Source of the DNA: a virus
DNA: 39,768 nucleotides
IMG/VR virus record: IMGVR_UViG_3300031760_006869
Location: 1-39,768 of that record
Direction: 5' to 3' (one strand)
Part shown: in pieces, positions 1 through 39,768 of the stretch
Layout: each line of letters starts with the position of its first letter
Numbering within the stretch: position 1 is the stretch's first letter
Program-made: the position numbers and the translations under genes
The notes under the pieces: generated by a model
Database searches by the model: none
Seen by the model: only the letters and a program-made list of their open reading frames with translations
What the model was told of the DNA's origin: nothing

Positions 1-127
1 TACGAATTGACATAAGTATACATTTGTTGTTGCAGTTTCTGTTCCATATGTAGCAGTGAATGTGGTATCACTTGAAACTTCAACATCATATAATGTGAAA
101 ATTCCTAAATTATTCGTTATACCGCTG
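1..127. repeat. 127-bp exact direct copy of 39546-39672 (circularisation / assembly-graph branch overlap)
   Basis: Base-for-base identity from tacgaattgac... to ...ataccgctg. The copies diverge immediately after the CCGCTG core (ttaaacgaa vs aaaaacgaa). Confidence 0.95.
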
Positions 128-136
128 TTAAACGAA
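113..136 (-). other. Putative inversion (recombination) site 3; on minus strand TTCGTTTAA-CAGCGG-TATAACGAA
   Basis: 9-bp imperfect inverted arms around a 6-bp asymmetric core shared with the sites at 37794 and 38401. It heads the reversed cassette C. Confidence 0.85.
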
Positions 137-182
137 GAAAAGAAGAAAAAATTTAAAATTTAAAAAAAGGTTTTGATAAAAA

Positions 183-1667
183 ATGTATAAATTTAAAGCA
201 AAATTCCAATTATCAAACGAATTCATAAGCAGTGAATCCGAAGAAATACAAAAAACAATGCAATTATCGGAGCCCCTAATACAAATCATAACACCAACCA
301 ACAATTACCATATCAACGATATAATACCCATCACAATAACAATAACCAACCGTAAAGGGCAACCAATACCAAATCTAGGATTCACTCTCACAATAAATGG
401 GACCAGTTACAGTTGCACTACAAATTCTGAAGGAATTTATACATTTGATTACACTATCCTTACTGATGATGATCTTGAAGTGACAATAACAACAAACATC
501 ACAAGCGTTTATGACACTGTAACAGTAGAGGAAACAATAGCAATAGATAGCCGTGAATACACAAACCTCTCAATAGTATCCAGTGCAAGTTCAACAATAT
601 TCCTAAACGGCTTCACATTAACAGCAACATTGAAGGACGCAAACGGAAACCTAATCAACGGTGCAGTGAAATTCTATGAAGGGTCTACACTTCTAGGAAC
701 GGTAAACACTATTAATGGAGTTGCAGAGTATACTGTATCGAATGCAAGCATAACAAGCCATATTTATCATGCAGTGTTTGAACAAACCACCGATTACCAT
801 GAGGCAACAAGTTCAAATGTGACTGTCAATGTTACAAAAGACACTCCGAAACTATCTAAACTTACTGGAGATCTTTACAGTGGATGGGTTACAGCTTGCC
901 AATTGACTAATAGTAAAGGAACCGCCCTATCAAGCAAGACTGTAAGCATAAAGATTAGTACAAATAACAGCACCTGGAGCACATTTAACAAAACCACTAA
1001 CTCTAGTGGTAAGGCCAGTCAAACAATCACTGGCGGTGCACAGAAAATATATGTGCAATATGTGTTTGCTGGTGATTCACAATACAATGCAGTTACACTT
1101 ACAGGAACCTTCAACATACTCAGTCCTAAAAGCGTTAAAAAGGCGGCAGGCACTATCGTATCAAATCCTGCTAGCGATAGTGGATCATATAGGAAATGGT
1201 ATGATACCTATACTGATGGTGATGACAATCCTATACGTGCAGGTAACACCTGTAACTCTGCAGTTATTGCAGGTAAAAATGGAACCCACAATAGGCCTGC
1301 TGATGTTGTTAAGACAGGTTGGGGATTCAACATTCCAACCGGTGCAACAATAACAAAAATAGTCTGTGCATGGAAGAGTAAGCAAGGTGAATGTGGTAAC
1401 GCTTACCCAAGCATACCTGCAGGTACAGTGACATTGAAGGTTGGAAGTTTAACTTTAACAGGAACTGGAAGTAAAGGTGGTAACGGATCATATGTATCAT
1501 CAAGCAAGACATGGTCCAGTCCAAATGTATCCGCAGCAAACGTTAACAGCAGCAGCATGAAGTTAACCCTTTCACATGCAGCTAACACTAATACTAATCC
1601 TGGTCTGTTCTATGTGATAGGGCCTAATTTGACAGTTTATTACAATCCAGCACAAGGAAGTGTATAG
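183..1667 (+). CDS. Ig-like-domain minor tail / adhesin-like protein (494 aa)
   Basis: Thr-rich Big-type repeats (TLTATLKDANG...VKFYEGSTLLGTV...NGVA; VQYVFAGDSQYNA). C-terminal beta-domain is shared with the N-terminus of the next gene. Lies in the tail module. Confidence 0.75.
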   Translation: MYKFKAKFQLSNEFISSESEEIQKTMQLSEPLIQIITPTNNYHINDIIPITITITNRKGQPIPNLGFTLTINGTSYSCTTNSEGIYTFDYTILTDDDLEVTITTNITSVYDTVTVEETIAIDSREYTNLSIVSSASSTIFLNGFTLTATLKDANGNLINGAVKFYEGSTLLGTVNTINGVAEYTVSNASITSHIYHAVFEQTTDYHEATSSNVTVNVTKDTPKLSKLTGDLYSGWVTACQLTNSKGTALSSKTVSIKISTNNSTWSTFNKTTNSSGKASQTITGGAQKIYVQYVFAGDSQYNAVTLTGTFNILSPKSVKKAAGTIVSNPASDSGSYRKWYDTYTDGDDNPIRAGNTCNSAVIAGKNGTHNRPADVVKTGWGFNIPTGATITKIVCAWKSKQGECGNAYPSIPAGTVTLKVGSLTLTGTGSKGGNGSYVSSSKTWSSPNVSAANVNSSSMKLTLSHAANTNTNPGLFYVIGPNLTVYYNPAQGSV

Positions 1668-1670
1668 ATT

Positions 1671-4600
1671 ATGGTGACAACACAAAAATTCTATGCTAAA
1701 AACATAACACAAACTTCAGAAAACACAGTGTGGAATAGTACTAATCCTCAAAATCCACGTAAGTATAGGCAGTTTGTAAATTTAGATGCCTTGAAGGCAG
1801 ATGACTCAAATTATGCAACATGTAGCAACCTTGCAGGTAAGAATGGGACCCATAACCGGCCTTCAACTGTTACTTTCACTAATTTTAATATCAGTTTGCC
1901 AACGGATATTATCATTAAAAAGATTGTTGTAGGTTATGCACATAACAAGGTAAGTTACAGCAGCAAGACAGCTTATCCTAATGTAGGTGCACCTACAATT
2001 AGCTTGATAAATGTTAGTGCTAGTGGAAAAGGGAATGCAGTTCCTATAAATTATTCTAAATACACTAAAAGTTTCAGCATTTCACCAAACAGGTCTAAAG
2101 TTATCAGCAGCAATTTCGGTGTTAAGATAAATTACCCAGTCAACAGTAACACTAATCCTGGAGCAATCAAGTTAGGTTACTGTTGGGTACAGGTGGTTTA
2201 TGAAAAAGTACAGAAACAAGTGAGCGGAGCGGTTAAAAAGACTACAACTTCTACAAATACTCAGATTGTAGAGGATATTGTAGGGATTAACAGCACAGCG
2301 ACTAGTGTTTTTGTAGGGGATACGTGCCTTATTGATGTGGATGTTACAACTTCAGCCGCTAACACTCCACTGAAATTTGAAATAGATCTTGGAGAAGATT
2401 TCACATTCGTGGAAAAAACCGAAGGTGATGGGACAATAACCAGCGATGATGGCCTTTTCTGGGAAGTTCTCACTGCAAACACCACAGCACATATACAATT
2501 CAGCGTCATAGGGGCAACAGTAGGAACACATTATATAATAATTACAGATGTCACCAATCCAAATGATACAAAAATTGTAAAGAAGATTGGTATTGTAACC
2601 TTGGCGGAGCAATTGGTATGTTATCCTAGCCTTCCAACAGATGGCATTGAAAACGATACCGTAACATATACGCTTGAAGTGTTTAGCACAAACCCTTTAG
2701 CTGTTAATAAGGAATTGGAAGTTACTTTGCCTCCGGAAATTGTTATTGATGGTGTTGATACTGATTATGGAAGTGCAACTTTTGAAAATGGTGCGGAAGA
2801 GAACCTCATCACTTGGGAAGTGGAATTCCAAGAGCAACATGCAGAGATTGAAATCACTGTAGAGCTAACTAGCAGTGGAGTTTACTCTCAAGTGTTTAAA
2901 GACGTCACTGATGAAGAGCATGTAATAAACACATGCTCTATCCATGTGAAGCCGGAAACATTAACTGTACCGTTCTACAGCATTACTGAAGTGGCAGATG
3001 AGATGTATAACCGCTTTGGCCAAGGCGTGAATTACAATGTGTCATGCTACATGAAGGTAGAGATCACTGATGACCCAGAAACTGTAGCGGATGAGCAGGA
3101 CCTTTTTGAAACATACGCATATAATTACCGTTTAGGTGTTGTCCAGGGGGATTTCCAGAACGAGATTGAAATGCTTGAAATCGCAGAATGGTCTGACCCA
3201 ATAAGCAACCTTGGAGAATGGGAGCTTTTAACCGTTAACTTCAACTTTGAAGAGGGCAAACCGATACACATCATAAGGACTGGTGAATACATTGAAAACC
3301 AGGCCACATTTATGGATGTCTACTTCTCTGAAGCATGCATAATAGAGCAAAGCGTGAATGATGGTTTTGAATTGCCAGGCAATTATCCTGTCCCTATACA
3401 TGGGATAAACACTCCAATAGGTTATAATGATGACCTTGAGGATGTTGAAGAGGATGCAATAGTAAGCCCTTCGGTTTTCAATATGGCTAAGCTTGAAAAC
3501 ACTACTGGCGTTAGGTTATATGATCTTGATACTGATGAGTTAGTGCTGCTAAATGCAGTTGTGGAAGGTGTGAGCGTTCATTTGGATGTGCAGACCGATA
3601 AAAGCACAAACCTATTATGCAGATTGGTTATGCCTAACGGCAAGGTAGGTTCAAGGAGCATAAACCTTGAAGATGAAACCAATGGGCCGATAAGCATAGG
3701 TGGAAAGTTTGACCTTTGGGGATTGGACTTTGAGGACTTTAACATAGAATCCTTGGAGGATGTTGAGATAGAGGTCATTGCACAGAACCCTTATCTCTAC
3801 GATAGTGTTCTTGAAATCACTAATGCATTGCTTGAATATCATTATCTGGAATTGGATGATAGTTTCATTGAATTCTGGATAAGCAAGGAACAGACCATTG
3901 ATGATGATACAGGCAAGGCTGTTGAGAAATGGATTAGCAGCAGATATTACAATATGAGCCTGAGAAATGCTGAAGGAGTGCTTGGTGCAAACAATGATGT
4001 CAGCTATTACCAGGTAAACGGTTCGGATAAAACCATCCCTTACTTATCAAATATTGTAAGTAAGAACCTTGACCTTGAGTTCAGCATTGGAAATTGCAGC
4101 ATTGAAGAGGCTACAATATTCCTGCAACGTGTGGGCAAATTATTCAGCAATAATAGGGATGATTTTAACAACCCATACTTGAATAAGATTAAGTTTTCAC
4201 ATATCCCTGATATTTTCTATGAGTATATCATGGAGGACCATATCAAGGAAAAGATTGAAACTGGAATCTACAAATGTACTGTTAGTTTGAAAATCCCAGC
4301 AGGTACTGCCTATAGCATTGAAGAGTCTGTGACAGTAAGTCAAGGTGCAAACAATGGTATCGCAAAGGTTAGTCCTGTAATACAATTGTTGGCCTTGGAT
4401 GATACTGTAGACCTCACAGAGAGAAAGTCAGGGCAGAACCTTAACCTTATCGCTACTGGAACCAATGACATAACCGCTAACGATTATATTGTTATTGACT
4501 GTGAAAACATGAAAGTTACCAAAAACACATTAGAGGATGACGGTACTTTCACCACAGTTGACATTACAGATCATGTTGACTTTGACAGCAAATGGTTTAA

Positions 4601-4676
4601 TATTATTGGCGAATATGACTTTGACGCAGGGGAGACTGCACTTGTGCAAAATGTAAGATTCCGCGAAAGATGGTGA
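1671..4676 (+). CDS. Distal tail protein (Dit-like) extended with Ig/carbohydrate-binding-like domains (1001 aa)
   Basis: C-terminal ~250 aa has siphovirus Dit-like features (IKFSHIPDIFYE...TVSLKIPAG...YIVIDCENMKV...KWFNIIGEY...RFRERW). Directly upstream of the Tal-like gene. Confidence 0.7.
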   Translation: MVTTQKFYAKNITQTSENTVWNSTNPQNPRKYRQFVNLDALKADDSNYATCSNLAGKNGTHNRPSTVTFTNFNISLPTDIIIKKIVVGYAHNKVSYSSKTAYPNVGAPTISLINVSASGKGNAVPINYSKYTKSFSISPNRSKVISSNFGVKINYPVNSNTNPGAIKLGYCWVQVVYEKVQKQVSGAVKKTTTSTNTQIVEDIVGINSTATSVFVGDTCLIDVDVTTSAANTPLKFEIDLGEDFTFVEKTEGDGTITSDDGLFWEVLTANTTAHIQFSVIGATVGTHYIIITDVTNPNDTKIVKKIGIVTLAEQLVCYPSLPTDGIENDTVTYTLEVFSTNPLAVNKELEVTLPPEIVIDGVDTDYGSATFENGAEENLITWEVEFQEQHAEIEITVELTSSGVYSQVFKDVTDEEHVINTCSIHVKPETLTVPFYSITEVADEMYNRFGQGVNYNVSCYMKVEITDDPETVADEQDLFETYAYNYRLGVVQGDFQNEIEMLEIAEWSDPISNLGEWELLTVNFNFEEGKPIHIIRTGEYIENQATFMDVYFSEACIIEQSVNDGFELPGNYPVPIHGINTPIGYNDDLEDVEEDAIVSPSVFNMAKLENTTGVRLYDLDTDELVLLNAVVEGVSVHLDVQTDKSTNLLCRLVMPNGKVGSRSINLEDETNGPISIGGKFDLWGLDFEDFNIESLEDVEIEVIAQNPYLYDSVLEITNALLEYHYLELDDSFIEFWISKEQTIDDDTGKAVEKWISSRYYNMSLRNAEGVLGANNDVSYYQVNGSDKTIPYLSNIVSKNLDLEFSIGNCSIEEATIFLQRVGKLFSNNRDDFNNPYLNKIKFSHIPDIFYEYIMEDHIKEKIETGIYKCTVSLKIPAGTAYSIEESVTVSQGANNGIAKVSPVIQLLALDDTVDLTERKSGQNLNLIATGTNDITANDYIVIDCENMKVTKNTLEDDGTFTTVDITDHVDFDSKWFNIIGEYDFDAGETALVQNVRFRERW

Positions 4677-4682
4677 TAGTTT

Positions 4683-7004
4683 ATGGTAGTTGATGTTATA
4701 ATATTATCCCCAGATGAAAATTTCATAGCTTGGCTTGACACCACTGTGGTTGACTTGAAGGAAACCAATGAAGCGGCCATGATTAAGGAGATCCAGCTTA
4801 AGCATATTTTAACTGAGGATGTTGAATTGTCGAAATGGTACAGGCAAGGCAATAAGATATTTGTTGGTGGAGGCAATGGCCTCAATCCCTGCCTTTACGT
4901 TATCAATCAGGATTACGAATTGGATACATGGGAGGACCAGACTGTTAGCTTACGTGCAGAAGAGGTTCTTGTCGAGCTGAACAATGTCGAGCTCTACAGC
5001 TATACTGGCAGCAGCCCTATAACTGTGAATTCAACTTTCCTCACTAGTGTGTTTGGAGATTATTTCACCATCAAAGAGGTAGATTCATTTGTTACCAGAC
5101 AGAACAATCAGATTCAGCCTGTAGGTACAATGACTCTGATTGAGCTCATGCGTCTTATTGAAGCTGAAACTGGTATGGTCTTTGTAACTGAATATGAATT
5201 GTCTGAAACATCAAACAATGTCATTAAAAGGTATCTTAGCCTAAAGCAACCAGGAAATATAGGTTACACTTTCACACAGGCATTGGATGTAGGCCGTAAC
5301 CTGGATAATATCAGCTGCACTGTAGATGAGACAGATACTATACGTGGTGTAAGTCCAAAATTCAGTCTCAATGAAGATAATTCAGCTACAAGCTCTACAA
5401 GCATGACAAAAGCTGAACTTGCAGCAGTGATTAACGCTTACAAAACATTAGAGGTTACAAAAGGCACTAGCATACCTATGATCATTGAAAAGCAGGTTGA
5501 GAACAATGTCGAGACAGAAGTGATAACCGCTTACTGGTATGCTCCTTTCACAAAACAAGCCAATAAGTTATATGTTGAAGATGACAGCGGACCGGATTCA
5601 GATTACAGCACAACCGAAGCCAATTATAACCAAATTTACAGCAAAAAGGATAATGACAGTTTAAAGAAAGTCCCAAAACTGGGAACCATCAGCACTTCAG
5701 AAACCAATAAGTATCTGATTTATAATGCGTGTGCAAGGGAATTGCTTGAAAAGCGTTATCCTGAGATACATATTGATGTGAAACTTGCAGACCTTAACCT
5801 TATGCTTGGAGATCATGATTCAAGTTATAATGTGTTTGACAAGGTCTTTGTTAAGGTTCCTGGTTACAATACACTTATAGAGGCTTATGTCACCAAGACA
5901 GTTAAGGATCCTTTGGATGTTGGTGAAAACCAAATCACTATAAGCAATGCGAAGGTAGGTACAAAGGTGACACAGGTGAGCACCAGCCTTACCGTTGACA
6001 ATCTCACCAACAATACTGTAACTATCAATAAGAAAGGAACTGCCTTGACTGGAAAGCTCTTAAGTGAAGGTGTGGCATTGCCAAATGCGGTTGTTAGCAT
6101 AAGCTTTCAGAAATATGTTGAAGAGAAAACTCCTGTCATTGATGTTCAGGGAGTGGAACTTCAGGGAGTGACAACACAAAAGGCAAAGACAAAGACCATC
6201 ACAGAGAAGGTCAAGCGTACTGATGTCATAACCGCTTGGGGTTACAATACCTGTTCCTGCTGTGCATATCCTAAAAACCCTTACAAGAAAGTAAAGAAAA
6301 CCTACTTGAACAAATGCCCTCATTGTGGCAAAACAATGGTGTTGAAGGATAATCCTAAAAAATGCAAGGATGGGGAAATCACATGTTCCTCTTGCGGAGC
6401 GGACTACTGTATCAACTGCGGAGGTGACAAGAAAAACAAGACCTGGTGTAAAAAATGGAAATTGACACCAGCTAGTGAGTACACTACCGTTACACGTGAG
6501 GTTCCAATAACCACTGCAACAGAAAAAACAAACAACAGTAAGAATTATGATGTTAAAGATCCTACAGCAAGTCCAGCTGCACAAAAGCTCATCAAGAAAT
6601 ACAGTGTTCCTACATTAGTTGTTGCCAAGGCAAAGAAGATAGGTTATGGCAAAACCACAGATACTGCAAAGTTAAGGGCAATTGCAGATTGGATGGGATT
6701 AGGATCAAGTGGAAATATCAAATACCAGAAATACGAATGCTTGAAACGTGGTGCAACTGGTACATTAACCAGTAAGAAAGGTAATTGTGCGGACCAAACA
6801 GCTCTTGCTGTTGCATTGGCACGTGCAATGGGCATAAAGTCAAGGTATGTTCACCGTAAAGGCCATTTCTACGGAGAGTACTATATCAACCATTCCTGGT
6901 TTATCATGGATACAGTAACAAGTAAAGGATGGGGCCATTACTGGAATGGTAGCGGTGCATTGATTAGCAAAGGTTACAGTTTCAAAGGCTGCAAAGTCTA
7001 CTAA
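4683..7004 (+). CDS. Tail-associated lysin / baseplate hub (Tal-like) with Cys-rich insert and C-terminal transglutaminase-like (PeiW/PeiP-type) peptidase domain
   Basis: N-terminal phage tail hub-like region follows the Dit gene. C-terminal KGNCADQ...KGHFYGEY...IMDT gives a Cys-His-Asp triad. Confidence 0.75.
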   Translation: MVVDVIILSPDENFIAWLDTTVVDLKETNEAAMIKEIQLKHILTEDVELSKWYRQGNKIFVGGGNGLNPCLYVINQDYELDTWEDQTVSLRAEEVLVELNNVELYSYTGSSPITVNSTFLTSVFGDYFTIKEVDSFVTRQNNQIQPVGTMTLIELMRLIEAETGMVFVTEYELSETSNNVIKRYLSLKQPGNIGYTFTQALDVGRNLDNISCTVDETDTIRGVSPKFSLNEDNSATSSTSMTKAELAAVINAYKTLEVTKGTSIPMIIEKQVENNVETEVITAYWYAPFTKQANKLYVEDDSGPDSDYSTTEANYNQIYSKKDNDSLKKVPKLGTISTSETNKYLIYNACARELLEKRYPEIHIDVKLADLNLMLGDHDSSYNVFDKVFVKVPGYNTLIEAYVTKTVKDPLDVGENQITISNAKVGTKVTQVSTSLTVDNLTNNTVTINKKGTALTGKLLSEGVALPNAVVSISFQKYVEEKTPVIDVQGVELQGVTTQKAKTKTITEKVKRTDVITAWGYNTCSCCAYPKNPYKKVKKTYLNKCPHCGKTMVLKDNPKKCKDGEITCSSCGADYCINCGGDKKNKTWCKKWKLTPASEYTTVTREVPITTATEKTNNSKNYDVKDPTASPAAQKLIKKYSVPTLVVAKAKKIGYGKTTDTAKLRAIADWMGLGSSGNIKYQKYECLKRGATGTLTSKKGNCADQTALAVALARAMGIKSRYVHRKGHFYGEYYINHSWFIMDTVTSKGWGHYWNGSGALISKGYSFKGCKVY

Positions 7005-7021
7005 TAAGGAGGGTTAAAGTT

Positions 7022-7201
7022 TTGACTTTAGAAGGTAAATCATTAAAATTTATGAAAACCTATACCAGGGCAACTGGCAGTGATGGGAAGTTCAGCATTC
7101 CTATCAATCTTGCAAAGGGAGATTACCAGGTCACTATCAATTATGGTGGGGATTTGGAACATGCCCCTTCAAGCAAGACTGTTAATCTTCATGTGGGATG
7201 A
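7022..7201 (+). CDS. 59-aa half Ig-like adhesin repeat (TTG start)
   Basis: Hand-translated MTLEGKSLKFMKTYTRATGSDGKFSIPINLAKGDYQVTINYGGDLEHAPSSKTVNLHVG. AGGAGG RBS about 8 nt upstream. Confidence 0.7.
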   Translation: MTLEGKSLKFMKTYTRATGSDGKFSIPINLAKGDYQVTINYGGDLEHAPSSKTVNLHVG

Positions 7202-7206
7202 GTTAT

Positions 7207-7347
7207 ATGTCTGATGATTATTGCTTAAACTGTGCATTCCACAATCCAAATGCTGAATATGGATGTGAGATGTCAGAGGACATTGTTGTCTGTAGTGTGA
7301 AAATGAGAAAAAAGAAACAAGAAAAACAAGAGGTTAAGAAAATATGA
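7207..7347 (+). CDS. 46-aa small Cys4 protein
   Basis: Hand-translated MSDDYCLNCAFH...GC...VC...KKI. ATGA overlap with the endolysin start. Confidence 0.6.
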   Translation: MSDDYCLNCAFHNPNAEYGCEMSEDIVVCSVKMRKKKQEKQEVKKI

Positions 7348-8393
7348 AATATGGAAATAAGGCCTTGGTAACTGAAGCATCACAAATAAAAAATTTCATT
7401 GAGAAAAATAAGAAAGTGCCTAAAGCTGCAACACTCACTACTGGTGAAACGTTATCCCCTTACAGTATTGCATACTTGTTGTCTTTAGCAGTGAAAGATA
7501 ATCTTAAAAGCAAGAGTTATGATTTGGTAAATGTGATAATTTACAATCCTGCAAAGAAACATGTTGACACCATCAATGCTGATGTTGTCAAGAAGGATTA
7601 CATGATCATGATTGATAACTTCATAAAGTTTTGCAGGAAATATCATCGTGTTCCAAGATACATAACAGTTCCAAGTCTTGATGTTAAGGTATCATTTGAA
7701 CTGTACCTTTATTGTATCAGTAAAATCGTATTGTTCATTGATAAAAACAAGAAAATGCCGAACTATTGCAATTTTAATAAATCATTCAGTTCAAATACTG
7801 CAAAGGTTACCTCAACAGTGAAAAAAGAGGTTAAGAAATCTACATCAACCAGTACAAACACTAACATTTATACAAGTTCCCCACATCCAACCAAAAAAGG
7901 ATGCGGAGGAATGGGCCAAGACACCAGCTATTACTGTGGAGTATCAGCATTACAAAAATGCCTTTTCAAATTTGGCATAACTGACTTCTCTCAAAAGACC
8001 CTTGCAGGTTATGCCGGAACCACCACCAAGGGAACAAGTCATGATGGAATCCGAACAGCTGTAGCATATGTGAACAAGAAAAAAGGAACCAATATCAAAG
8101 TGACTGAAAAGACATTCACAGAGATAGGCGGATGGAAAGGAATAGCTAAAGTATTGGCCAACAAGAACCAGGACATTATATTCCACAACAAGTACAGATT
8201 AAAATACGGCCATTACGAAGTGATGAACCAATTGAACCTGACAACAAATTATGCGAAAGTGTTGAACAGCCTTGGCAACAAATGCACCAGCAACTGCTAT
8301 TGCGGTTATGTTGAGGACAGGTCATGCAATACAATGAAGAAGTATATGGATGCAGTAAGTCAGAAAAGCTTGATAATACTTACAAAAGGATGA
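7344..8393 (+). CDS. Endolysin: pseudomurein-binding repeats plus C39-like cysteine peptidase (PeiR-like pseudomurein endoisopeptidase)
   Basis: N-terminal PMB-like segments (IKNFIEKNKKVPK...YLLSLAV; FCRKYHRVPRYI...YCISKIVLF). Catalytic GQDTSYYCG...YGHYEV...VLNS motif. Next to a holin-like gene. Confidence 0.8.
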   Translation: MKYGNKALVTEASQIKNFIEKNKKVPKAATLTTGETLSPYSIAYLLSLAVKDNLKSKSYDLVNVIIYNPAKKHVDTINADVVKKDYMIMIDNFIKFCRKYHRVPRYITVPSLDVKVSFELYLYCISKIVLFIDKNKKMPNYCNFNKSFSSNTAKVTSTVKKEVKKSTSTSTNTNIYTSSPHPTKKGCGGMGQDTSYYCGVSALQKCLFKFGITDFSQKTLAGYAGTTTKGTSHDGIRTAVAYVNKKKGTNIKVTEKTFTEIGGWKGIAKVLANKNQDIIFHNKYRLKYGHYEVMNQLNLTTNYAKVLNSLGNKCTSNCYCGYVEDRSCNTMKKYMDAVSQKSLIILTKG

Positions 8394-8402
8394 ATGATGT
8401 TT

Positions 8403-9041: not shown

Positions 9042-9298
9042 TTAATAAGTGATTAAGGCCATAAATAAATAGTAGGAGAGGCAAATTTTGCTTATATTAA
9101 AATTTTGATGTATGGTTTGGTTTTTTTATCATTTCATTTTTGTTACTCTTCTTGATAATTTTGTATTAATTTATTATTTAATTGATTATTGATTTGCCTT
9201 TCCTGCCTTAACAATCACCTTATTAAGTCAACAACTATTTGTATGTATCAAAGGATTAGGAGGGAGTCCCATTTTTTGTGGATTCCCTCCTTTTTTTT
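9042..9298 (+). ncRNA. Candidate structured small RNA A with 3' hairpin and U-tract
   Basis: 15-bp stem 9073-9087/9191-9205 with three G:U pairs, outer stems 9042-9058/9206-9226, and a 12-bp hairpin 9258-9291 followed by a T-run. Confidence 0.45.
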
Positions 9299-9400
9299 AT
9301 TTTTCAAATGCTCTCGCTTAATCTTTATATGCTTCTAAGAATAAAAATAATATTACTTATTTTCTAATAAGTAAAGTGTTTTATGGTGTAGATAATTTCT

Positions 9401-9448: not shown

Positions 9449-9624
9449 AAAAATTACGGTTTAATGAACTTAATTAAACAGAAGGAAGCCCGTAAAGTGT
9501 TTGAGGATATATTACGTGAAAATAATATAAAATTATAAAAAATTTTGTATTTTTTTATATTTTTTCTTCATTTTTTAGTATTTTTTTAAGTTTTTTTTAC
9601 TATTTTTGGGTAAAAAACATTAAA

Positions 9625-9635
9625 TTTATATTATA
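9625..9635 (+). promoter_or_regulatory. Archaeal TATA-box candidate for structured RNA B
   Basis: TTTATATTATA lies about 25-30 nt upstream of the first helix (9653-9658), with an A-rich stretch upstream. Confidence 0.4.
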
Positions 9636-9652
9636 CTTATCACATAATATTA

Positions 9653-10071
9653 TTTGACTTAGTTCTCGGTAAGTCAAAATTCTTGGGTATAGTCAATGTT
9701 GGGTTTTAATTGACTACTCCTCGGTGCTGTTTCTGCATACTTGTACTGTTCTTGTATTGCTTGTGGCCACTCCTAGGAATGTGGTCACATTAAACAGCTT
9801 TAAATAATCTACTTTTTTTCATTAAATTATTTCTTTGCATATGCTCTTTTGAAAACATTTAAATCTTATTTTATTCAATATTTATACTGAGGAGTGTTCT
9901 TTGTAATTGTTATTGATATGGCCCTAACCCAAGTCATATTAAAAAAATAAATACTAAATATGGTATGTGTTTTTTTAATTAAAGCTAGGCTTGGCTATAT
10001 CCAGGGATTCTTACCGAGAACTAAGCGTTCCTTGTAGTCAAGGCCTTTCTATAGGAGGGATTGGCCATGAC
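9653..10071 (+). ncRNA. Candidate large structured RNA B / cis-regulatory leader with multi-stem fold and possible pseudoknot
   Basis: Five nested helices whose only non-Watson-Crick pairs are G:U on the + strand, plus a hairpin occluding the downstream RBS and start codon (see findings). Confidence 0.6.
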
Positions 10072-10141: not shown

Positions 10142-10451
10142 ATTTTCATACTTGATTAAGTCTATTCTTTAGTTACTAGGGATTCGAGTTTTTTATTTAG
10201 TTCACTTACTTTTTATTAATTTTTCTCGTAGTAATGATTGTTTGGAATGCTCCTCTTTTACTAGGAACTATTTTTTTCATTATTTATAATTTTTTCACTT
10301 TTTTTCTTTTTTTAGACAAGTTTCGTAAAATTTTAATTTGTTCGTATAATATGAGATTGTTTAGGTTTCTAATTTTATATACTAGTTTTTACAGAATAAT
10401 AATCACTCTTTTTTAAATATTAAAAAAACATAACCAAGCCAGAAAATATCC

Positions 10452-10476
10452 ACTTGCTTATTTGGAATAAGCAAGT
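10452..10476. promoter_or_regulatory. Perfect palindrome ACTTGCTTATT-TGG-AATAAGCAAGT (attP core or operator candidate)
   Basis: 11-bp perfect arms, about 165 bp upstream of the recombinase start. Confidence 0.35.
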
Positions 10477-10640: not shown

Positions 10641-12017
10641 ATGAAGAGAAACAATTTTTGCCAAACCGACAAGCTACTCCATCAAAGGGTAAAAGACTTA
10701 TCAAAGTCAAGCCAAAAGGAATACAATTATGTCTTCGATGACATATACCACCTGACAGGAAGAACACCTACAGAACTAGTAAAGATTGGACTTCAGGAAC
10801 AAGATCCATACGCAACCAACGAAAAGGGAGAGAAAACATACGAATACCTACCATTCAGAACCATAACCAGTATCCATGAGGAATATGAGGAATACCTGCG
10901 AAAAAATAGCAACATAAAGGAATCAACCATCAAAGGAAGATTGCTATACTTCAGAAGCTTATTCAATAAGCATAGGATAGAACTTCCAGACATGCCAATA
11001 TTCCACATCAAAAAACCACGTACAAGATTAAAGGAACTGCCTTTAGACAGTGAATTGAAACTAGCTATTGAATTGTCAACAGAACCAGTGCAACCTTTAT
11101 TATTCCTGACACCAAGGGTAACAGGCCTTCGTTTAAGTGATATAGAAACCTTCACCTATAACACAGTATTGGAAGCAACAAAACTTTATCATGACGGAAC
11201 ACTTGAAGACCTATTGAGCAAGAACCCTTATGAGATCATACCACGTTTTGAATTAGACCCTGTGAAAACAGAAAAGCAAGGTAACCTTTGCATAACATTT
11301 GCCACTCCAGAATGGACATATTATTTCTTCAGATACACCAAGTGGAGACAAAGGAAATATGAGGAAGCTGTAGATGAGCTTGAAAGATTGAAGCATGATG
11401 TGAGGGCAAAGAACAAGCATCGCAAAAACCGTATTGAAAAAAGGATACAGAAACTGAAAATCACTCCAGAATCCCCATTGTTCATTTCAAATTTATCCAG
11501 GGTAACCGGCTTGACAAAGGGAAGCATGGGAAGATTATTCTATGACATGAATGAGAAACTAATGTATGAATTAGGGCCTGATTATAATTATAAGAATGAG
11601 GATAACAATTACGGCCGTTTCAGAGCACATAACCTTCGTAAGCTATTCAGTACAACATGCAGGGTAAATATGGTTAAAATAAATGTTGAAAATCGTAACG
11701 ATAAGTTCAGGGAATTAGACATAGTCTCATTGTTCACAGGACATACTCCTCCAAACATGAGCAACAGTGAAGTTTATGATGCTGTTGAGGAGGATAGTTT
11801 TGATAGTGAATTGAGACAAGTGTATACTGCTCTTGTACCTTTCAACACAATCTATCGTGAGCAGTATGATTTGGAGCAGGAAAGACAAAGGGCTTTAGAA
11901 CTTCAGAAAGAGAATGAAAGAATCAAAAAGGATATTGATTCTGCAGTGAATCAGAAAATAAGTGAAGTGTTTAACGAGTATGGCATTGAGGAAATACTTA
12001 AAAAACATGGGCTATAA
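10641..12017 (+). CDS. int: Tyrosine recombinase / integrase
   Basis: Catalytic signature TGLRLSD (R)...RAHNLRK (HxxR)...TGH...VY. N-terminal SAM-like core-binding region. Confidence 0.9.
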   Translation: MKRNNFCQTDKLLHQRVKDLSKSSQKEYNYVFDDIYHLTGRTPTELVKIGLQEQDPYATNEKGEKTYEYLPFRTITSIHEEYEEYLRKNSNIKESTIKGRLLYFRSLFNKHRIELPDMPIFHIKKPRTRLKELPLDSELKLAIELSTEPVQPLLFLTPRVTGLRLSDIETFTYNTVLEATKLYHDGTLEDLLSKNPYEIIPRFELDPVKTEKQGNLCITFATPEWTYYFFRYTKWRQRKYEEAVDELERLKHDVRAKNKHRKNRIEKRIQKLKITPESPLFISNLSRVTGLTKGSMGRLFYDMNEKLMYELGPDYNYKNEDNNYGRFRAHNLRKLFSTTCRVNMVKINVENRNDKFRELDIVSLFTGHTPPNMSNSEVYDAVEEDSFDSELRQVYTALVPFNTIYREQYDLEQERQRALELQKENERIKKDIDSAVNQKISEVFNEYGIEEILKKHGL

Positions 12018-33653: not shown

Positions 33654-36149
33654 ATGGCAGATAATATGGAGGTTATCATATCTGCAATTGATGATGCTAG
33701 TGAAATATTCAACAGCATTGTAGCCAGTTGTGAAGAAATGATGTCTGGCATTTCTGCTAGTGCGGATGAGGCTTCGGTTAGTATTGATGAGATTGCTCCT
33801 GCTGCAGAGGAAGTTGAATCAGCTATTGCCAGTATAGATCCATCAGGTATTGATGAGGTTGGCAGTGCTGCAAGTGATGCTGCTAGCGGTGCTGATGAAC
33901 TTGGCGATAGCCTTGGAGGTGCTTCAGATGCCGCAGAGGAACTAGGAAACAGTATGGGCATCATAGAAGGGGGCCTATTGTTAGGTGCTGCAGAGCAAAT
34001 AGGGAACCTTGCAGGAAACACTGAGGACATGGCTCAACAAATGAACACAGCTGCAATAACTATAGGTCAGCTTGCCACTCAAACTGGCATTGCAGAACCT
34101 CAAATGGTGGCATTGATTAATGAGATAAGTAATGCTACATTCCCTAATGATGAGGCAATGATGTATGTCAAATCATTATCCCAAATTGGAGTTTCTGCAA
34201 GTAATCTTGGAAAATCCGCTACTGATTTGGATAAGATTAACGATGCCTTTGGAATGGGAGCAGGTAGAGTTAACAGTTTAGGCCAGGAATTAAGCGTACT
34301 TGGTGTAGATATGAACAATGTATCTGACAGTTTTAATGCTTTGGCTTATGCAAATGCAAATACTGTAGGTGGAATGGATAACTATTACAATTTCCTTAAG
34401 AAATACGATGCTCAATTCAAGGAATTAGGTTATGATGTAGACCAATCTTCCATAATCATTGCAGCAGCCACACAAAAATACGGTGGTGGCCGTGCTGCAT
34501 TAAGCGGTTTATCAGAGGCATTGGAACAGGCTGATGGTGATACACGCAAATTGGAACAAGCTCTTGGAATTCAAGCCGGAACACTTGACAATGCAAGTGC
34601 TGTCACAGGACAATATGAAGGTCAATTGCAGGAATTGGCTAATGAAGAGGCAGAGCATAAGACAATCCTTGACCAGATAGGTGCAGCATGGGAGGATGTA
34701 AGCCTATCATTGAGTGGTGTTTTGTCTCCAGCTGCAAGTGCAATCAGTTTAATAGGTCAAGTTGGTAGTGTAGGAACGAGTGTCAAGGGTATTAAGGAGT
34801 TAACAACCACTTTCAATCAGCTCAGAGCTGCAAATATTGCTTCAACAGCCTCTAATTATGCATTGGCTGCAAGTCAAACAGTATTAAATGCTGCCACCAC
34901 TATATCTACTACTGCAATGGGGATTTTAAGTGGTGAAATCAGCTTAGTAACTATTGCAACAGAAATGTGGAATGCTGTATTGGCTATGAACCCATTAGTC
35001 CTAGTGGCAGTTGCAGCAGTCGCATTGGCAGTTGCAGTTTATGAGGTCGGTAAAGCGTTCGGATGGTGGTCAGATGTATCCTCAATGTTAGATGCCATAT
35101 CTGCCGGTGTAAATCGTCTATGGGAAGCGTTCATAAACAATCCGGATGTGCAGGCCTTCTTGACTGCAATAGGTGCAGCATTTAATGTAGTCTCAGGAGC
35201 AGTGGGCAATGCTGTAGGATGGGTGCTCAGTTTCTTTAATGTTTCTGCTCCAGGCAATTTTGACATAGTGAGACTGGTGATAGATGCTGTAGGTGCCGCT
35301 TGGAATGCAATGACTTTGCCAATAAGGGCTGTCATAACTGTCATAAGGACATTCCTAACAATTCAAGAATTAGGACGTCAAGCAGCACAAGGATTCATAT
35401 CAAATGTGATCAATAACATCAAGAATCTTCCTAGTCGTGTTGGTTCATATGTGACTCAAACAACTTCAAGGATTGCAAGCGGTGCTCGAGCATGGGCAAC
35501 AAATGCAGGAAGAGGTGCAATCAACACTGTAAACAGTGTTATAAATCAAGTTCAAAACTTACCTAATAAGGTTTACAATGAATTCATTAAGATTGGTCAG
35601 CGTATACGTGAAAGTGTAGGTGCTGCAGTGAGAGCAGCTACCAGTTTTGGTGGCGATATAGTGAGTGCAGTATTAGGTGCATTGCACATTGCATCACCAG
35701 GTATCATACAACGTAAGACTGTTGGAGAGTTTGAGGATACTGTAACACGCATTGCAGGAACCGCAAGAAGTGCATATACTGCAGGGCAAAGCGTAGGTCA
35801 AAGCATAGTGGATGGGTTCGATGATGTGAACCTGAACAATAAGAGCTTAAATTTCAATGCCACAGGAAACATTGCAACAGACCTTGCAAATGGTAAAGGA
35901 TTTGACATAACAACAGGCCAATATGTGGTAGAGGATACCAACATCAACCTTTACATTGACGGAAAATTATCACATGAATTCTTGAACCTTACCAATAACA
36001 TTAATGAAGTGGAACTTGCAAGGATCATAGAGGAAAGCGAGCTTAGTGATAGGTTTATCTACAAGCTTGTGCATAGTGATCTGTTCCAACACTTGGATAA
36101 TAAGGTGAAGGTAAGATTGCAATCTAGAGTAAAACGTAACGGAGCATAA
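33654..36149 (+). CDS. Tape measure protein (831 aa)
   Basis: IISAIDDAS N-terminus, Ala-rich helical repeats, and IASPG motif near the C-terminus. Confidence 0.9.
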   Translation: MADNMEVIISAIDDASEIFNSIVASCEEMMSGISASADEASVSIDEIAPAAEEVESAIASIDPSGIDEVGSAASDAASGADELGDSLGGASDAAEELGNSMGIIEGGLLLGAAEQIGNLAGNTEDMAQQMNTAAITIGQLATQTGIAEPQMVALINEISNATFPNDEAMMYVKSLSQIGVSASNLGKSATDLDKINDAFGMGAGRVNSLGQELSVLGVDMNNVSDSFNALAYANANTVGGMDNYYNFLKKYDAQFKELGYDVDQSSIIIAAATQKYGGGRAALSGLSEALEQADGDTRKLEQALGIQAGTLDNASAVTGQYEGQLQELANEEAEHKTILDQIGAAWEDVSLSLSGVLSPAASAISLIGQVGSVGTSVKGIKELTTTFNQLRAANIASTASNYALAASQTVLNAATTISTTAMGILSGEISLVTIATEMWNAVLAMNPLVLVAVAAVALAVAVYEVGKAFGWWSDVSSMLDAISAGVNRLWEAFINNPDVQAFLTAIGAAFNVVSGAVGNAVGWVLSFFNVSAPGNFDIVRLVIDAVGAAWNAMTLPIRAVITVIRTFLTIQELGRQAAQGFISNVINNIKNLPSRVGSYVTQTTSRIASGARAWATNAGRGAINTVNSVINQVQNLPNKVYNEFIKIGQRIRESVGAAVRAATSFGGDIVSAVLGALHIASPGIIQRKTVGEFEDTVTRIAGTARSAYTAGQSVGQSIVDGFDDVNLNNKSLNFNATGNIATDLANGKGFDITTGQYVVEDTNINLYIDGKLSHEFLNLTNNINEVELARIIEESELSDRFIYKLVHSDLFQHLDNKVKVRLQSRVKRNGA

Positions 36150-36153
36150 TTTT

Positions 36154-37485
36154 ATGAAGAGTATTATTATTCAACCATCCCATGTAAGAGGGTTAGGCAA
36201 TATCCTTGACAATGAGGATAACATACAGGGTTTGCATTGCAGGGTGGAAGCCCAGGATTCTCTTGTTGAGTTTGATGATCTTGAATTGAAAACTTATCAT
36301 ATGGGTACAGGAACTCAGTTAAACATCAGATTCATTTTAGATACTCTCAGTATACTTCCAGAGCAAAGCGTTCATATAGATGTGCTGGTTACTGATGATG
36401 AGAACAATCCAGTAAGTGGTGTTGATTTGTACATATATGAAAGTGATGAGCTTATAAGTCAGATGGAAACTGATGAGGACGGATACGGTGTTGAAGATGG
36501 AAGTTTAGGTTTCAACTTCACTAGTGAAGATGTAGGTAAGCATACATTGAAATGTGTGATTCCAAGACAGGACCTTTACTATGAATCCAAGAACGAATTA
36601 GTGATTAATGTATTGCAAGAAACCACTCTCACATTAACAATTGATCCGGATGAAATTGATACACTCACCGATACAATTACCTTGTACGGCACTCTTCTTA
36701 ATGAGGAAGAAGAGCCTGTTGTCGGTGAGATCATAACATTCTATGATAACACCACCCTTTTGGGATGGAGCATTACCAACGATTTAGGTGTTGCTACTTT
36801 AGTGGTTAACATAGAGGATATACAGGATTTAGGCCTTGTACCATATATCAGCATTGGATGGACCAAGACAAGTGACAATCCTAACAATCATACAGAGGAC
36901 GGAAGCCTTTATGTCTCTGCAACAATCAACGATACAGGCATCACTGGTTTGCCTTTGACTATTCTTGTCAACAATGATGTAATGTTTGAAGGGGTTACTG
37001 ATTCAACAGGACATGCTGACCTTTTAGACACCACTCTTAATCAGAATGCGGTTGTAACAGTAATCACTAAACATACCAATCTTTATAATGCGACCACTAA
37101 ACAATACCGTTTAGGTGAGGATAACATGTTGCAAGTTTACAGTGTAGGCCTTGCAGGAAACGGCCTAACAAACCCTAATTGTCTTGGTGAGGTTTCCTGT
37201 GTGCCTACTGATACTAATATCACTTGCAGTGTAAATGTCCGTACCTTGAACAATGTGCGTGTTCCTGGTTTGACTGTGGAGTTCTATAAGGACAGCACAT
37301 TGCTTGGTACTGGTGTGACTAATTATAATGGTAATGCAAGTTACACTTTGACTAGTGGAGATAGTAGTGCGGAGTATTTGTTGAAGGCTGTCATAAGCAA
37401 TCAAGCGGGTTATACTGGCACTAACCGAGAGTTTAACACTATCCTTGTCGGTGGCGAGGGCAGTACTTGTGAAGATTATATATAA
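36154..37485 (+). CDS. Ig-like-domain minor tail / adhesin-like protein
   Basis: Repeated Ig-like units (VTDDENNPVSG...ETDEDG; ITFYDNTTLLG...TNDLGVA; VEFYKDSTLLGTGVTNYNGNA). Confidence 0.75.
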   Translation: MKSIIIQPSHVRGLGNILDNEDNIQGLHCRVEAQDSLVEFDDLELKTYHMGTGTQLNIRFILDTLSILPEQSVHIDVLVTDDENNPVSGVDLYIYESDELISQMETDEDGYGVEDGSLGFNFTSEDVGKHTLKCVIPRQDLYYESKNELVINVLQETTLTLTIDPDEIDTLTDTITLYGTLLNEEEEPVVGEIITFYDNTTLLGWSITNDLGVATLVVNIEDIQDLGLVPYISIGWTKTSDNPNNHTEDGSLYVSATINDTGITGLPLTILVNNDVMFEGVTDSTGHADLLDTTLNQNAVVTVITKHTNLYNATTKQYRLGEDNMLQVYSVGLAGNGLTNPNCLGEVSCVPTDTNITCSVNVRTLNNVRVPGLTVEFYKDSTLLGTGVTNYNGNASYTLTSGDSSAEYLLKAVISNQAGYTGTNREFNTILVGGEGSTCEDYI

Positions 37486-37503
37486 AGTAAGGAGTTAATT
37501 GAG

Positions 37504-38397
37504 ATGAGTATTTGTGATAAGATTAATACTGCAGGGGAGACATTAGAAGCTAATCTCACTGCAAGAGGTATAAGTTGTGATTTCGGTAAGAATAGTGATG
37601 GTAAGGATACAATCCAGGATATGGCAGAGATGATCACTGCATCTAATTTGCGAGGTATTGGTGATGCCATTATCCATATATCAGCGAGTAGACCGTATTT
37701 GTTATCTGGTGAGAAGACTGATTTGATTGTGACTTTGCATAATGGTGTAGGTGCTCCGTTAGCAAACAAGAGTGTAACTGTGTCAGATGGTACTTCGTTA
37801 TACAGCGGTTTAACAAACTTGAATGGTACTTTTACCTTATATGATGTTACTGTTTCATCTAACACCACTTTCACTGCAAGTTATGGGTCTGTGAGTAATA
37901 CTTGTACTGTTGAGTATTGTACCTTTGTTGATTATGCAGTTAAAGACAATCATAACCATAATTATTTCAATCAAGCAGGTACAAGCAAGGTAACAATTAC
38001 CGAAGCCGATGGGTATAAGGAGTTCAAGACAATCAGTACAACAGCAGGGAATGTATATATTGGCTCATCAACTTCTTATACTGGCTTTGATGTAGGGGAT
38101 ACTTGGACTATCATATATGATAAACTGTACATTAATGGGTATAATGTTGCTTTCCAATGCTATAATAGCTCTACAACAGTAAGTATCAACTCTACAACAT
38201 TGCTTTCACATAATAGTGATTTTCAGGAATTGAAATTCGTATGCGATGGCTCATCAATCAAAGCATATGTCGATGGTGTATACAAGACACAAACCAGTTA
38301 CACTTCAACTGGACACGGATATTTGAGAATCAATCTTAACAATAACAATGGAGCATCACAAGTAACATTCCGAGCAAAAAATATCCGAATTTTATAG
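37504..38397 (+). CDS. Phase-variable receptor-binding / adhesin protein: constant N-terminus (37504-37803) plus expressed cassette A
   Basis: Internal recombination site at codons 97-105 (SLYSGLTN). C-terminal ConA/lectin-like pattern (ELKFVCDGSSIKAYVDG). Confidence 0.8.
   Translation: MSICDKINTAGETLEANLTARGISCDFGKNSDGKDTIQDMAEMITASNLRGIGDAIIHISASRPYLLSGEKTDLIVTLHNGVGAPLANKSVTVSDGTSLYSGLTNLNGTFTLYDVTVSSNTTFTASYGSVSNTCTVEYCTFVDYAVKDNHNHNYFNQAGTSKVTITEADGYKEFKTISTTAGNVYIGSSTSYTGFDVGDTWTIIYDKLYINGYNVAFQCYNSSTTVSINSTTLLSHNSDFQELKFVCDGSSIKAYVDGVYKTQTSYTSTGHGYLRINLNNNNGASQVTFRAKNIRIL
37794..37817 (+). other. Putative inversion site 1 TTCGTTATA-CAGCGG-TTTAACAAA (inside the coding frame)
   Basis: Matches sites 2 and 3 and marks the start of homology among the cassettes. 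Confidence 0.85.
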
Positions 38398-38428
38398 GGT
38401 TTCGTTTTTCAGCGGTATAACGAATAAT
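38314..38428. repeat. 115-bp exact inverted copy of 39654-39768
   Basis: Reverse complement checked by eye: cacggat...tttcgtttttcagcggtataacgaataat. Confidence 0.95.
38401..38424 (+). other. Putative inversion site 2 TTCGTTTTT-CAGCGG-TATAACGAA
   Basis: Lies 3 nt after the cassette A stop and heads cassette B. Confidence 0.85.
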
Positions 38429-38998
38429 CAAGGGACATTCACCTTATATGATGTGGAAGTTACTGATACTATTACAATGTTTACTGCCACATATTCAAGT
38501 GTTAGTGCAAGTTGTAAGGTTGAGTATTGTTTATTTGTTGATTATGCAGTTACAAGTAAATATAACACTAATTATACTGTGGGTAATGCCGTAACAAAGA
38601 CAGTAGGAGACAATTACACCACATTATCATCTACCAATTCAAACTCCTCCACAGGTAGAACCGTTTCAACATCAAGTTTCAGTGGAGATTTAATATTGGA
38701 AATGGAAGCCAATATGGTAAATTATGCATCCAATTGGGCTTTCTATCTTGGTTTCAGAAACGGTTCCAACCATAGTATTGCACGATTGCTTGTTGATGAT
38801 TGGAGATACATCAAATTCACAAGAGAAGATGGTGTCTGCAAAGGATACATATCAACAGACAATAATACTTGGTCTGAAATGAGTATGTATTCTGATGATG
38901 TGGGGTCAAGTGATGTGCAATTGGAATTATACATTTACAATGCAACTGGAACTTCACATAGTGTACAATTCAAGAATGTGAGAATCAAAGCATTATAA
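38411..38998 (+). other. Silent C-terminal cassette B (195 codons, no own start)
   Basis: Open from the site core: SGITNNQGTFTLYDVEV...EYCLFVDYAV...VQFKNVRIKAL. Paralogous to cassette A. Confidence 0.85.
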
Positions 38999-38999
38999 T

Positions 39000-39092
39000 G
39001 TTTCAGTAGATTATGAAGTTTTTGTATTTGAAATCAATAGTGGTGGGGATAACATCAAGTACAGTAATTTCAGAATGTACAGTATTGATTAA
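39000..39092 (+). pseudogene. Remnant 3' end of a fourth cassette (D)
   Basis: VSVDYEVFVFEINSGGDNIKYSNFRMYSID* resembles the cassette C-termini. No site or 5' part. Confidence 0.55.
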
Positions 39093-39113
39093 CCCTCTCT
39101 GATTCTGAAATTC

Positions 39114-39671
39114 TTAATAAATCGCAAAATTTTTATATGAAAATTCTACAGTTGCATTTTGTCGGAAACCAATCGCATAAATCTCATTCATAGTCCTATC
39201 ATATTCAGCATCTATTACTCCATTTAAGTATCTTCTAACTTTTGTACCAGTTATTTCAACACGATAACTTCCAATGTTAGAACAAGTCCAAGTGAAATAA
39301 GTATTATCTCCCCTAATCTCAAAATTCGGGGTTCCAGTTGTTATTTCTGTGATTTCAAATTCCACATTGAAAGGAGCAGTATAAAGTTTTGTAGAAGACC
39401 AACTACCACTTCCCCCACTAAAATATGCTTGAGCACCACTTGGGGAGGTTATTTTCAAGTTAGTGGCATTGTCTGTCCTTGTTCTTGTGAATGAAGAGTT
39501 TTGATTATACCAAGTATCATTATGTTTTGTACTTGTTCCATAATCTACGAATTGACATAAGTATACATTTGTTGTTGCAGTTTCTGTTCCATATGTAGCA
39601 GTGAATGTGGTATCACTTGAAACTTCAACATCATATAATGTGAAAATTCCTAAATTATTCGTTATACCGCT
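39114..39671 (-). other. Silent C-terminal cassette C, inverted (185 codons)
   Basis: Open from the site core: SGITNNLGIFTLYDVEV...YLCQFVDYG...FSYKNFAIY. Confidence 0.85.
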
Positions 39672-39768
39672 GAAAAACGAAACCCTATAAAATTCGGATA
39701 TTTTTTGCTCGGAATGTTACTTGTGATGCTCCATTGTTATTGTTAAGATTGATTCTCAAATATCCGTG

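Follow-up and report, generated by a model that had tools for sequence, protein, structure and literature searches.

A probable shufflon-like inversion module in the tail-tip gene of a rumen Methanobrevibacter siphovirus, with sites resembling a family found in host chromosomes

The record IMGVR_UViG_3300031760_006869 of IMG/VR contains, in the tail-tip gene of the virus, what is most probably a shufflon-like module for site-specific inversion, carried by a temperate siphovirus of rumen Methanobrevibacter. We analysed the whole entry, referred to below as the window, which is 39,768 bp long at 36% G+C and has its genes on the + strand. The tip gene (37504-38397, +) encodes a protein of 297 amino acids, comprising a 100-residue constant part and a C-terminal cassette, A; two further cassettes, B and C, lie silent behind it. 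A preliminary description, made from the letters of the sequence, had proposed that a multi-cassette inversion system swaps the C-terminus of this tail protein. That proposal is now supported by a junction between isomers within the assembly itself, by rearranged forms in independent samples, by spacers that covary across 14 loci, and by models of cassettes A and C that resemble lectins and carbohydrate-binding modules (CBMs).

The tip gene is preceded by an AGGAG ribosome-binding site. Its constant part (residues 1-100; 37504..37803, +) is predicted to form N-terminal helices and the first half of an immunoglobulin (Ig)-like domain, with cassette A (37804..38397, +), the one expressed in the recorded isomer, adding the second Ig-like half and a ConA/CBM-like β-sandwich. 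Cassette B (38411..38998, +), recognised by its sequence, and cassette C (39671..39114, -), which is inverted and models as a galectin/CBM-like jelly roll, are both silent and start-less, with no ATG, GTG or TTG in frame between the preceding stop codon and the site at which each begins. All three cassettes open in frame with S-G-(L/I)-T-N, have about 45 residues in common, then diverge to less than 20% identity, and finish with a similar K-N-x-x-I motif. In all these respects, from coordinates and reading frames to the shared opening, the common part, the later divergence and the lack of start codons in B and C, the preliminary description proved accurate. A further 36 codons in frame right after the cassette C stop (39003..39113, -) form the relic of a cassette 3' end, closing with the C-terminal motif of the family, K-N-F-x-I-Y, and are probably the remnant of a lost fourth cassette.

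Each cassette starts at one 24-bp site, a near-palindrome made of a 9-bp arm, the 6-bp spacer CAGCGG and an inverted 9-bp arm (9-6-9). Allowing up to 3 mismatches, the window holds 4 copies of the site, compared with 0 in 100 shuffles. Site 1 (37794-37817, +) has its left arm at 37794-37802, its spacer CAGCGG at 37803-37808 and its right arm at 37809-37817, and falls on residues Y100-S101-G102. Site 2 (38401-38424, +), with the spacer CAGCGG at 38410-38415, is direct relative to site 1. Site 3 is inverted and occurs in two forms. The native form (136-113, -) lies within a duplicate, 1-136, and is followed by a non-coding flank (137-182) and the gene 183-1667; in the recombinant form (39681-39658, -), it is the left arm of site 2 that adjoins the right arm and cassette C. 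The earlier assignment of sites 1 and 2 as direct and site 3 as inverted is thereby upheld by the mapped orientations, and the fourth copy (136-113) appears because the record closes on itself. The same scan, at up to 3 mismatches, found no cassette-type site in the virus outside the cassette module. Three cassettes and three sites in the order (+,+,-), all in frame, provide alternative C-termini for one constant N-terminus.

The ends of the record capture two isomers of this module. By self-comparison, bases 1-127 are identical to 39546-39672, an exact 127-mer; the record is a closed circle whose path was closed on this repeat, and the unit genome of about 39,545 bp is probably complete. The label of the record, 'linear, 78% complete', seems too low, apparently on account of the inversion branch. 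The 127-base match extends as far as the outer edge of the site 3 spacer. Past the spacer, the start of the record continues into the native non-coding flank (137 onward) and gene 183, and the end of the record continues as a reverse complement, through the left arm of site 2 into the 3' end of cassette A. The last 96 bases (39673-39768) match 38409-38314, and 39682..39768 (-) is an inverted copy of the cassette A 3' end that represents the second isomer. This A-to-C junction arose by recombination of site 2 with site 3. The crossover must fall within the 19 bases common to both sites, and the flanks of the isomers are identical over 115-127 bases.

Further arrangements were read from Logan contigs, which show that an arrangement exists but not how frequent it is. 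In run X1, the probable source run, one contig spans exactly 38410-39672, from spacer to spacer; being bounded by both spacers, it implies more than one neighbour at each end. A 41-nt contig (39643-39683), at depth 21, runs across the A-to-C junction. The sample thus contained two isomers side by side, the record branching exactly at the spacer into either the native flank or the inverted 3' end of cassette A.

Samples from other studies hold further rearrangements. In run X2, cassette A adjoins the distal flank, in the slot that cassette C occupies in the window, and the constant part with site 1 is followed by a cassette that is absent from the window. Run X3 has another further cassette behind site 2. 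In run X8, a 44-kb contig has cassette A and site 2 followed by a forward-oriented C-like cassette, beyond which come an inverted cassette, site 3 and the flank. Our interpretation of runs X2, X3 and X8 covers the parts of the stretch that are represented by contigs. One contig of run X2 also joins 37118 to site 1, skipping 675 bases (37118-37794).

The module recurs in other viruses. The protein family has 84 representatives after clustering at 50% identity; full genes encode about 285-297 amino acids and cassette-only open reading frames (ORFs) about 170-225, with some matches of about 330-780. Loci in rumen and gut metagenomes repeat the architecture beside the lysin gene. An exact scan for the CAGCGG form of the site gave no match in the viral or genome contig collections, and a spacer-free pattern was needed; related loci have the same arms and varied spacers. 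Their site layout is always (+,-) or (+,+,-), with at least one inverted site. The window, L007-L010, L014, L072 and L081 are in the (+,+,-) class, and L011/L012, L053, L056, L059, L071, L062, L088 and a provirus in the host genome G171 in the (+,-) class. Two single-gene relatives, L006 and L016, have neither site nor spare cassettes; the absence of an integrase at L006 is uninformative because this locus lies on a fragment.

The arms are the same in all related loci, and the spacer varies from locus to locus. Eight spacer types were found: CAGCGG, CAATGG, CTCTGG, CGCCGG, CACAGG, CACCGG, CACCTG and, at single sites only, CTCCGG. One spacer is common to all sites within the locus in 13 of the 14 multi-site loci. 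When the spacers of the first 13 loci (12 of them uniform) were shuffled, the observed uniformity was reached in 0 of 100,000 shuffles. Identical spacers in partner sites are a hallmark of the overlap region of tyrosine recombinases. Sites of the 9-6-9 form, with spacers matched within loci and varied between them, fit a tyrosine recombinase that needs a matching overlap, and serine invertases, with their 2-bp core, would not account for three spacer bases changing in concert. The sole multi-site locus with unlike spacers is L058, where CACAGG and CACTGG (sites at 2096 and 2869) differ by one base; this mismatch may be a locked switch or a sequencing error.

Comparison of the loci also shows that cassettes move between viral lineages over evolutionary time. 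A C-type cassette, 86% identical, is silent in L007-L010, and a B-type cassette is silent in L011 and L056. In L088 (P0172), by contrast, the cassette in the expressed position is of the B type (84% identical), joined to another constant part at a site with a different spacer. A related oddity is a 209-residue ORF in L013 (1445-2074), in which an A-type tip domain (90% identical) stands behind an unrelated N-terminus with no site; it may be a decayed or rearranged cassette.

Such exchange between lineages could also be accommodated if there were no programmed switching at all, that is, if the spare cassettes were left to decay, were reassorted by rare recombination between co-circulating viruses, and the sample simply contained two strains. 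Run X1 does hold a second strain, without site 2, in which unrelated sequence follows the cassette A stop and a loose end lies at 38395. We nevertheless consider this explanation improbable. Branching occurs precisely at the spacers, where the sequences have 19 bases in common, too short a stretch for homologous exchange, and the identity of the isomer flanks over 115-127 bases counts against two strains. Many lineages keep start-less cassettes with an undamaged, in-frame reading frame and never lack an inverted site, and spacers that match within a locus and differ between loci likewise count against an absence of switching. Some observations do weigh against programmed inversion: the evidence is from contigs, not reads, and may reflect a mix of fixed strains; no contig joins cassette B or C to the constant part of this exact virus; and shared ancestry of the loci accounts for part of the spacer uniformity.

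The predicted structure of the expressed protein has a mean predicted local distance difference test score (pLDDT) of 80 and a predicted template modelling score (pTM) of 0.70. Helices occupy residues 2-42; they are followed by an Ig-like domain (residues 55-138, pLDDT above 90) and, at the C-terminus, a β-sandwich. In the model, the recombination site at Y100-S101-G102 falls inside the Ig-like domain, so the constant part and each cassette would supply one half of that domain. Among solved structures, cassette A matched the CBM 2c26, the lectin domain of Emp47p and PL7 lyases, with E values of 7e-6 to 3e-4; among viral models, it matched phage minor tail proteins, Ig-like (BIG2) domain proteins and ConA-like lectin proteins. 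Cassette C, modelled alone (pLDDT 80), matched the galectin-like 1oq1, CBM11 and CBM29, with query-normalised TM-scores of about 0.4-0.56. The fold matches are modest: normalised by match length, the TM-score ranges from about 0.1 for large multidomain proteins to about 0.6 for single-domain CBMs and lectins. The preliminary expectation of lectin-like tips for all three cassettes is thus borne out for the two that were modelled, A and C, as ConA-like, CBM-like or galectin-like jelly rolls with modest scores. Taken with the tail-gene neighbourhood, these lectin- and CBM-like folds make a receptor-binding tip the best reading of the cassette product, and we infer from the models that it recognises glycans.

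In the mechanism that we propose, one promoter and one start codon would serve the 100-residue constant part, to which any of three alternative C-terminal cassettes could be attached. To attach cassette C to the constant part, a single inversion between sites 1 and 3 would suffice; cassette B would need two, first between sites 2 and 3 and then between sites 1 and 3. The population would then release virions with differing receptor-binding tips. The enzyme would use the chemistry of a tyrosine recombinase, requiring identical spacers in partner sites, and would most likely not be viral.

The only recombinase detected in the record is a tyrosine recombinase of 458 amino acids (10641..12017, +), recognised by its R / H-x-x-R / H / Y motifs, its homologues and the junctions of a related provirus. 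Its relatives, at 35-40% identity, are annotated Methanobrevibacter phage integrases of family PF00589. A Pfam scan of the record for PF00589 came back empty and missed this protein, which was spotted through locus comparison and motif reading; its homologue in L011 matches PF00589 with an E value of 0.006, and comparison of its sequence with solved structures returned chance matches only. A search for serine recombinases (PF00239) gave no match in the record even at E ≤ 1, with control genomes positive. No recombinase gene occurs within or beside 37504-39768 or 1-8400, in keeping with the earlier remark that no invertase adjoins the cassettes.

Its attachment site could be located from the provirus in G171, the ends of which match the window up to 10471 and from 10458 onward at 92-95% identity, about 39 kb apart (G171:C46 ~7333-46201; L096, L097). 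The two junctions share an 11-base core, and the bacterial-type attachment site (attB) lies inside a host ORF. The provirus is mosaic, since its contig region 14500-20500 has no DNA similarity to the window. In the virus, the core of the phage attachment site (attP; 10452..10476) is a perfect 9-7-9 palindrome with arms and spacing unlike those of the cassette sites. By these comparisons, the protein is a true integrase with an attP different from the cassette sites.

It might still catalyse the inversions as a second job, as Int1 does in phiCh1, and some features would suit this: it is the sole recombinase of the virus, an integrase gene follows shortly after the lysin in those cassette-bearing relatives whose contigs extend that far, and, once shifted by 2 nt, its attP arms agree with the cassette arms at 8 of their outer 10 bases, a resemblance that also speaks against looking to the host for the enzyme. 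We consider such a dual role unlikely. Besides the differences at attP and the confinement of cassette-type sites to the module, a related integrase (41% identical to that of L011) is found in L016, the virus with no cassettes or sites; copies of this integrase family in host genomes have no cassette-type site close by; and hosts without homologues of the viral integrase still carry sites. Moreover, among cassette-bearing viruses the arms do not differ, even though pairwise identity between their integrases is only 22-28%. Divergent integrases with identical arms make a recombinase common to all of these viruses more likely, and the obvious common factor is the host.

We examined host chromosomes with the spacer-free pattern, in one genome per species, and scanned 61 Methanobacteriaceae genomes at up to 2 mismatches. 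The one-per-species scan gave 12 matches, of which 5 were in Methanobrevibacter, Methanosphaera or other Methanobacteriaceae genomes, four of them lying outside coding sequence and the fifth being the cassette site of a provirus (L023); the remaining 7 had degenerate left arms. In the family scan, 39 of the 61 genomes carried 1-10 sites each, with many different spacers, and a control with the reversed pattern gave 0. One host site occupies the same intergenic position between the same neighbour genes in G002, G043, G019 and G026, which represent four species; two additional genomes have one of these neighbours in common with them. In four complete chromosomes, a site of the family lies at 0.496, 0.479, 0.463 and 0.498 of the chromosome from cdc6; given 2-5 sites per genome, we estimate the probability of a site so near the antipode in all four to be of the order of 1 in 1000. 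Synteny and a position opposite cdc6 make this conserved intergenic palindrome (L049, at G043:C1:1480135; L034, L082, L084) a candidate for the Methanobrevibacter dif. The layout of this candidate is that described for archaeal dif, and every host examined has one strong XerA-like PF00589 gene.

The match between the viral arms and these host sites, the candidate dif included, which the preliminary description had not noticed, leads us to put forward the host XerA, the recombinase of chromosome dimer resolution, as the invertase, a tentative proposal to which we give close to an even chance. Slightly more tentative is the fuller idea that the virus has no invertase of its own because its cassette sites mimic the host dif, with Methanobrevibacter XerA flipping the tips. 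The same site family may drive phase variation in the hosts. In G005 (L033, G005:C15:8107-11130), inverted sites with matching spacers (9224-9247 and 9607-9630) enclose a 359-bp AT-rich segment, which lies upstream of an adhesin-like gene with a signal peptide; judged by its sequence, this locus is a candidate invertible promoter in a methanogen. A separate arrangement was seen at L048 (G043:C1:2135500-2153500), where identical direct sites 11.6 kb apart flank a gene for a 3053-residue adhesin-like protein; this unit could be excisable or duplicated.

The inverted pair in G005 would also suit a dedicated host invertase other than XerA, acting on sites in host chromosomes and virus alike, as would the number of host sites with their many spacers and the presence of several PF00589 genes in most hosts. 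We hold this to be unlikely too: one host with four sites has a single PF00589 gene, and that one is XerA-like (the genome is metagenome-assembled and may be incomplete), and among the sites of the family, one opposite cdc6 and one syntenic across species are as expected of dif. Returning to XerA, several findings fit it poorly. The direct sites 1 and 2 should let an unconstrained Xer-type enzyme delete cassette A, and (+,+,-) persists in several lineages. No site match was found in 22 of the 61 family genomes. The assignment of dif is one of position and synteny only, and the arms are unlike the published dif of Pyrococcus abyssi.

Invertible tail-fibre genes (Mu, P1, phiCh1) and shufflons (R64) are already known. 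Like the shufflon of plasmid R64 (IncI1) with its recombinase Rci, the module of the window has several invertible segments, a constant N-terminus with alternative C-termini of an adhesin (PilV in R64), and short sites in both orientations, and it would share the tyrosine-recombinase chemistry. It differs in having no adjacent dedicated Rci-like recombinase, and in its near-palindromic 9-6-9 sites, whereas the sfx sites of R64 are asymmetric and 19 bp long, with a 7-bp core and one conserved 12-bp arm. R64 is also a bacterial plasmid; here, the module is in an archaeal virus and the crossover falls inside an Ig-like domain. With the Mu Gin, P1 Cin and Hin systems it shares a constant tail-fibre N-terminus with invertible C-terminal alternatives that alter host range; unlike them, the virus has no PF00239 match, three covarying spacer bases in place of a 2-bp core, and more than two cassettes.

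Two Xer-based systems parallel the proposed enzyme. Integrative mobile elements exploiting Xer (IMEX), such as CTXphi, use Xer at dif-like sites, for integration rather than for switching a receptor-binding protein. Mycoplasma agalactiae inverts its vpma genes with Xer1, a paralogue dedicated to that locus and encoded next to it. Both resemble our proposal in having a Xer-type recombinase act at dif-like sites, and IMEX also resemble it in lacking an enzyme of their own.

An archaeal parallel is the haloarchaeal myovirus phiCh1 (Klein et al. 2012, as cited in PMC8371274), in which a pair of convergent ORFs flanks int1 and repeat clusters serve as the sites. The principle is the same: in this tailed virus of archaea, a tyrosine recombinase swaps the C-termini of a tail-fibre adhesin by inversion. 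The window differs from phiCh1 in having three cassettes, single 24-bp sites, no internal recombinase, and sites that match chromosomal ones of the host. A recombinase gene between the inverted ORFs, of the phiCh1 type, was looked for and not found; the B-to-C interval (38999-39113) contains only the cassette relic. The literature searched, which did not extend to the compendium of Medvedeva et al. 2023, held no prior report of such a system in methanogen viruses; nor did it hold one of this site family in Methanobacteriaceae, and the MSTV1 paper describes no inversion.

Methanobrevibacter dominates methane production in ruminants, and to our knowledge very few of its viruses are understood. 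A switch among at least three lectin-like tips, together with a shared pool of cassettes, would explain how such a virus keeps pace with a variable surface of host adhesins and glycans, and would be relevant to any attempt to deploy these viruses, or their tips, against methanogens of the rumen. For a virus to rely on the housekeeping archaeal XerA would, if true, be new, and would amount to a Xer-driven shufflon common to virus and host in archaea. If XerA does flip the tips, chromosome dimer resolution would have acquired a new use, and the same system may lie behind phase variation of archaeal surface proteins. The site is simple, portable and defined at the level of bases, and its natural spacer variants should be mutually orthogonal.

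The remainder of the genome agrees with a siphovirus of Methanobacteriales. Its gene order runs from the terminase, portal and capsid region to the tape measure gene (33654-36149), a gene for a 443-residue Ig-repeat protein and the tip gene at 37504. Past the closure of the circle, it continues with a Big-domain protein (183-1667), Dit (1671-4676), Tal with a transglutaminase domain (4683-7004) and the lysin (7344-8393). The lysin bears a pseudomurein-binding repeat, which places the host in Methanobacteriales; together with the integrated relative in a Methanobacteriaceae genome, it confirms the host group named in the preliminary description. The sequence was found in runs from gut metagenomes of cattle and sheep. 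Searches of PHROGs and Pfam gave no match for the tip gene or for several neighbour genes, and the window contains no transfer RNA genes. Lastly, three short non-coding stretches upstream of the integrase (~9290-9355, 9520-9660 and 10268-10315 of the window) match many places in hosts, being found in 72 of 314 Methanobacteriaceae genomes and often several times per genome. They adjoin a structured region at 9653-10025, and look like a dispersed repeat or small-RNA-like element common to virus and hosts.

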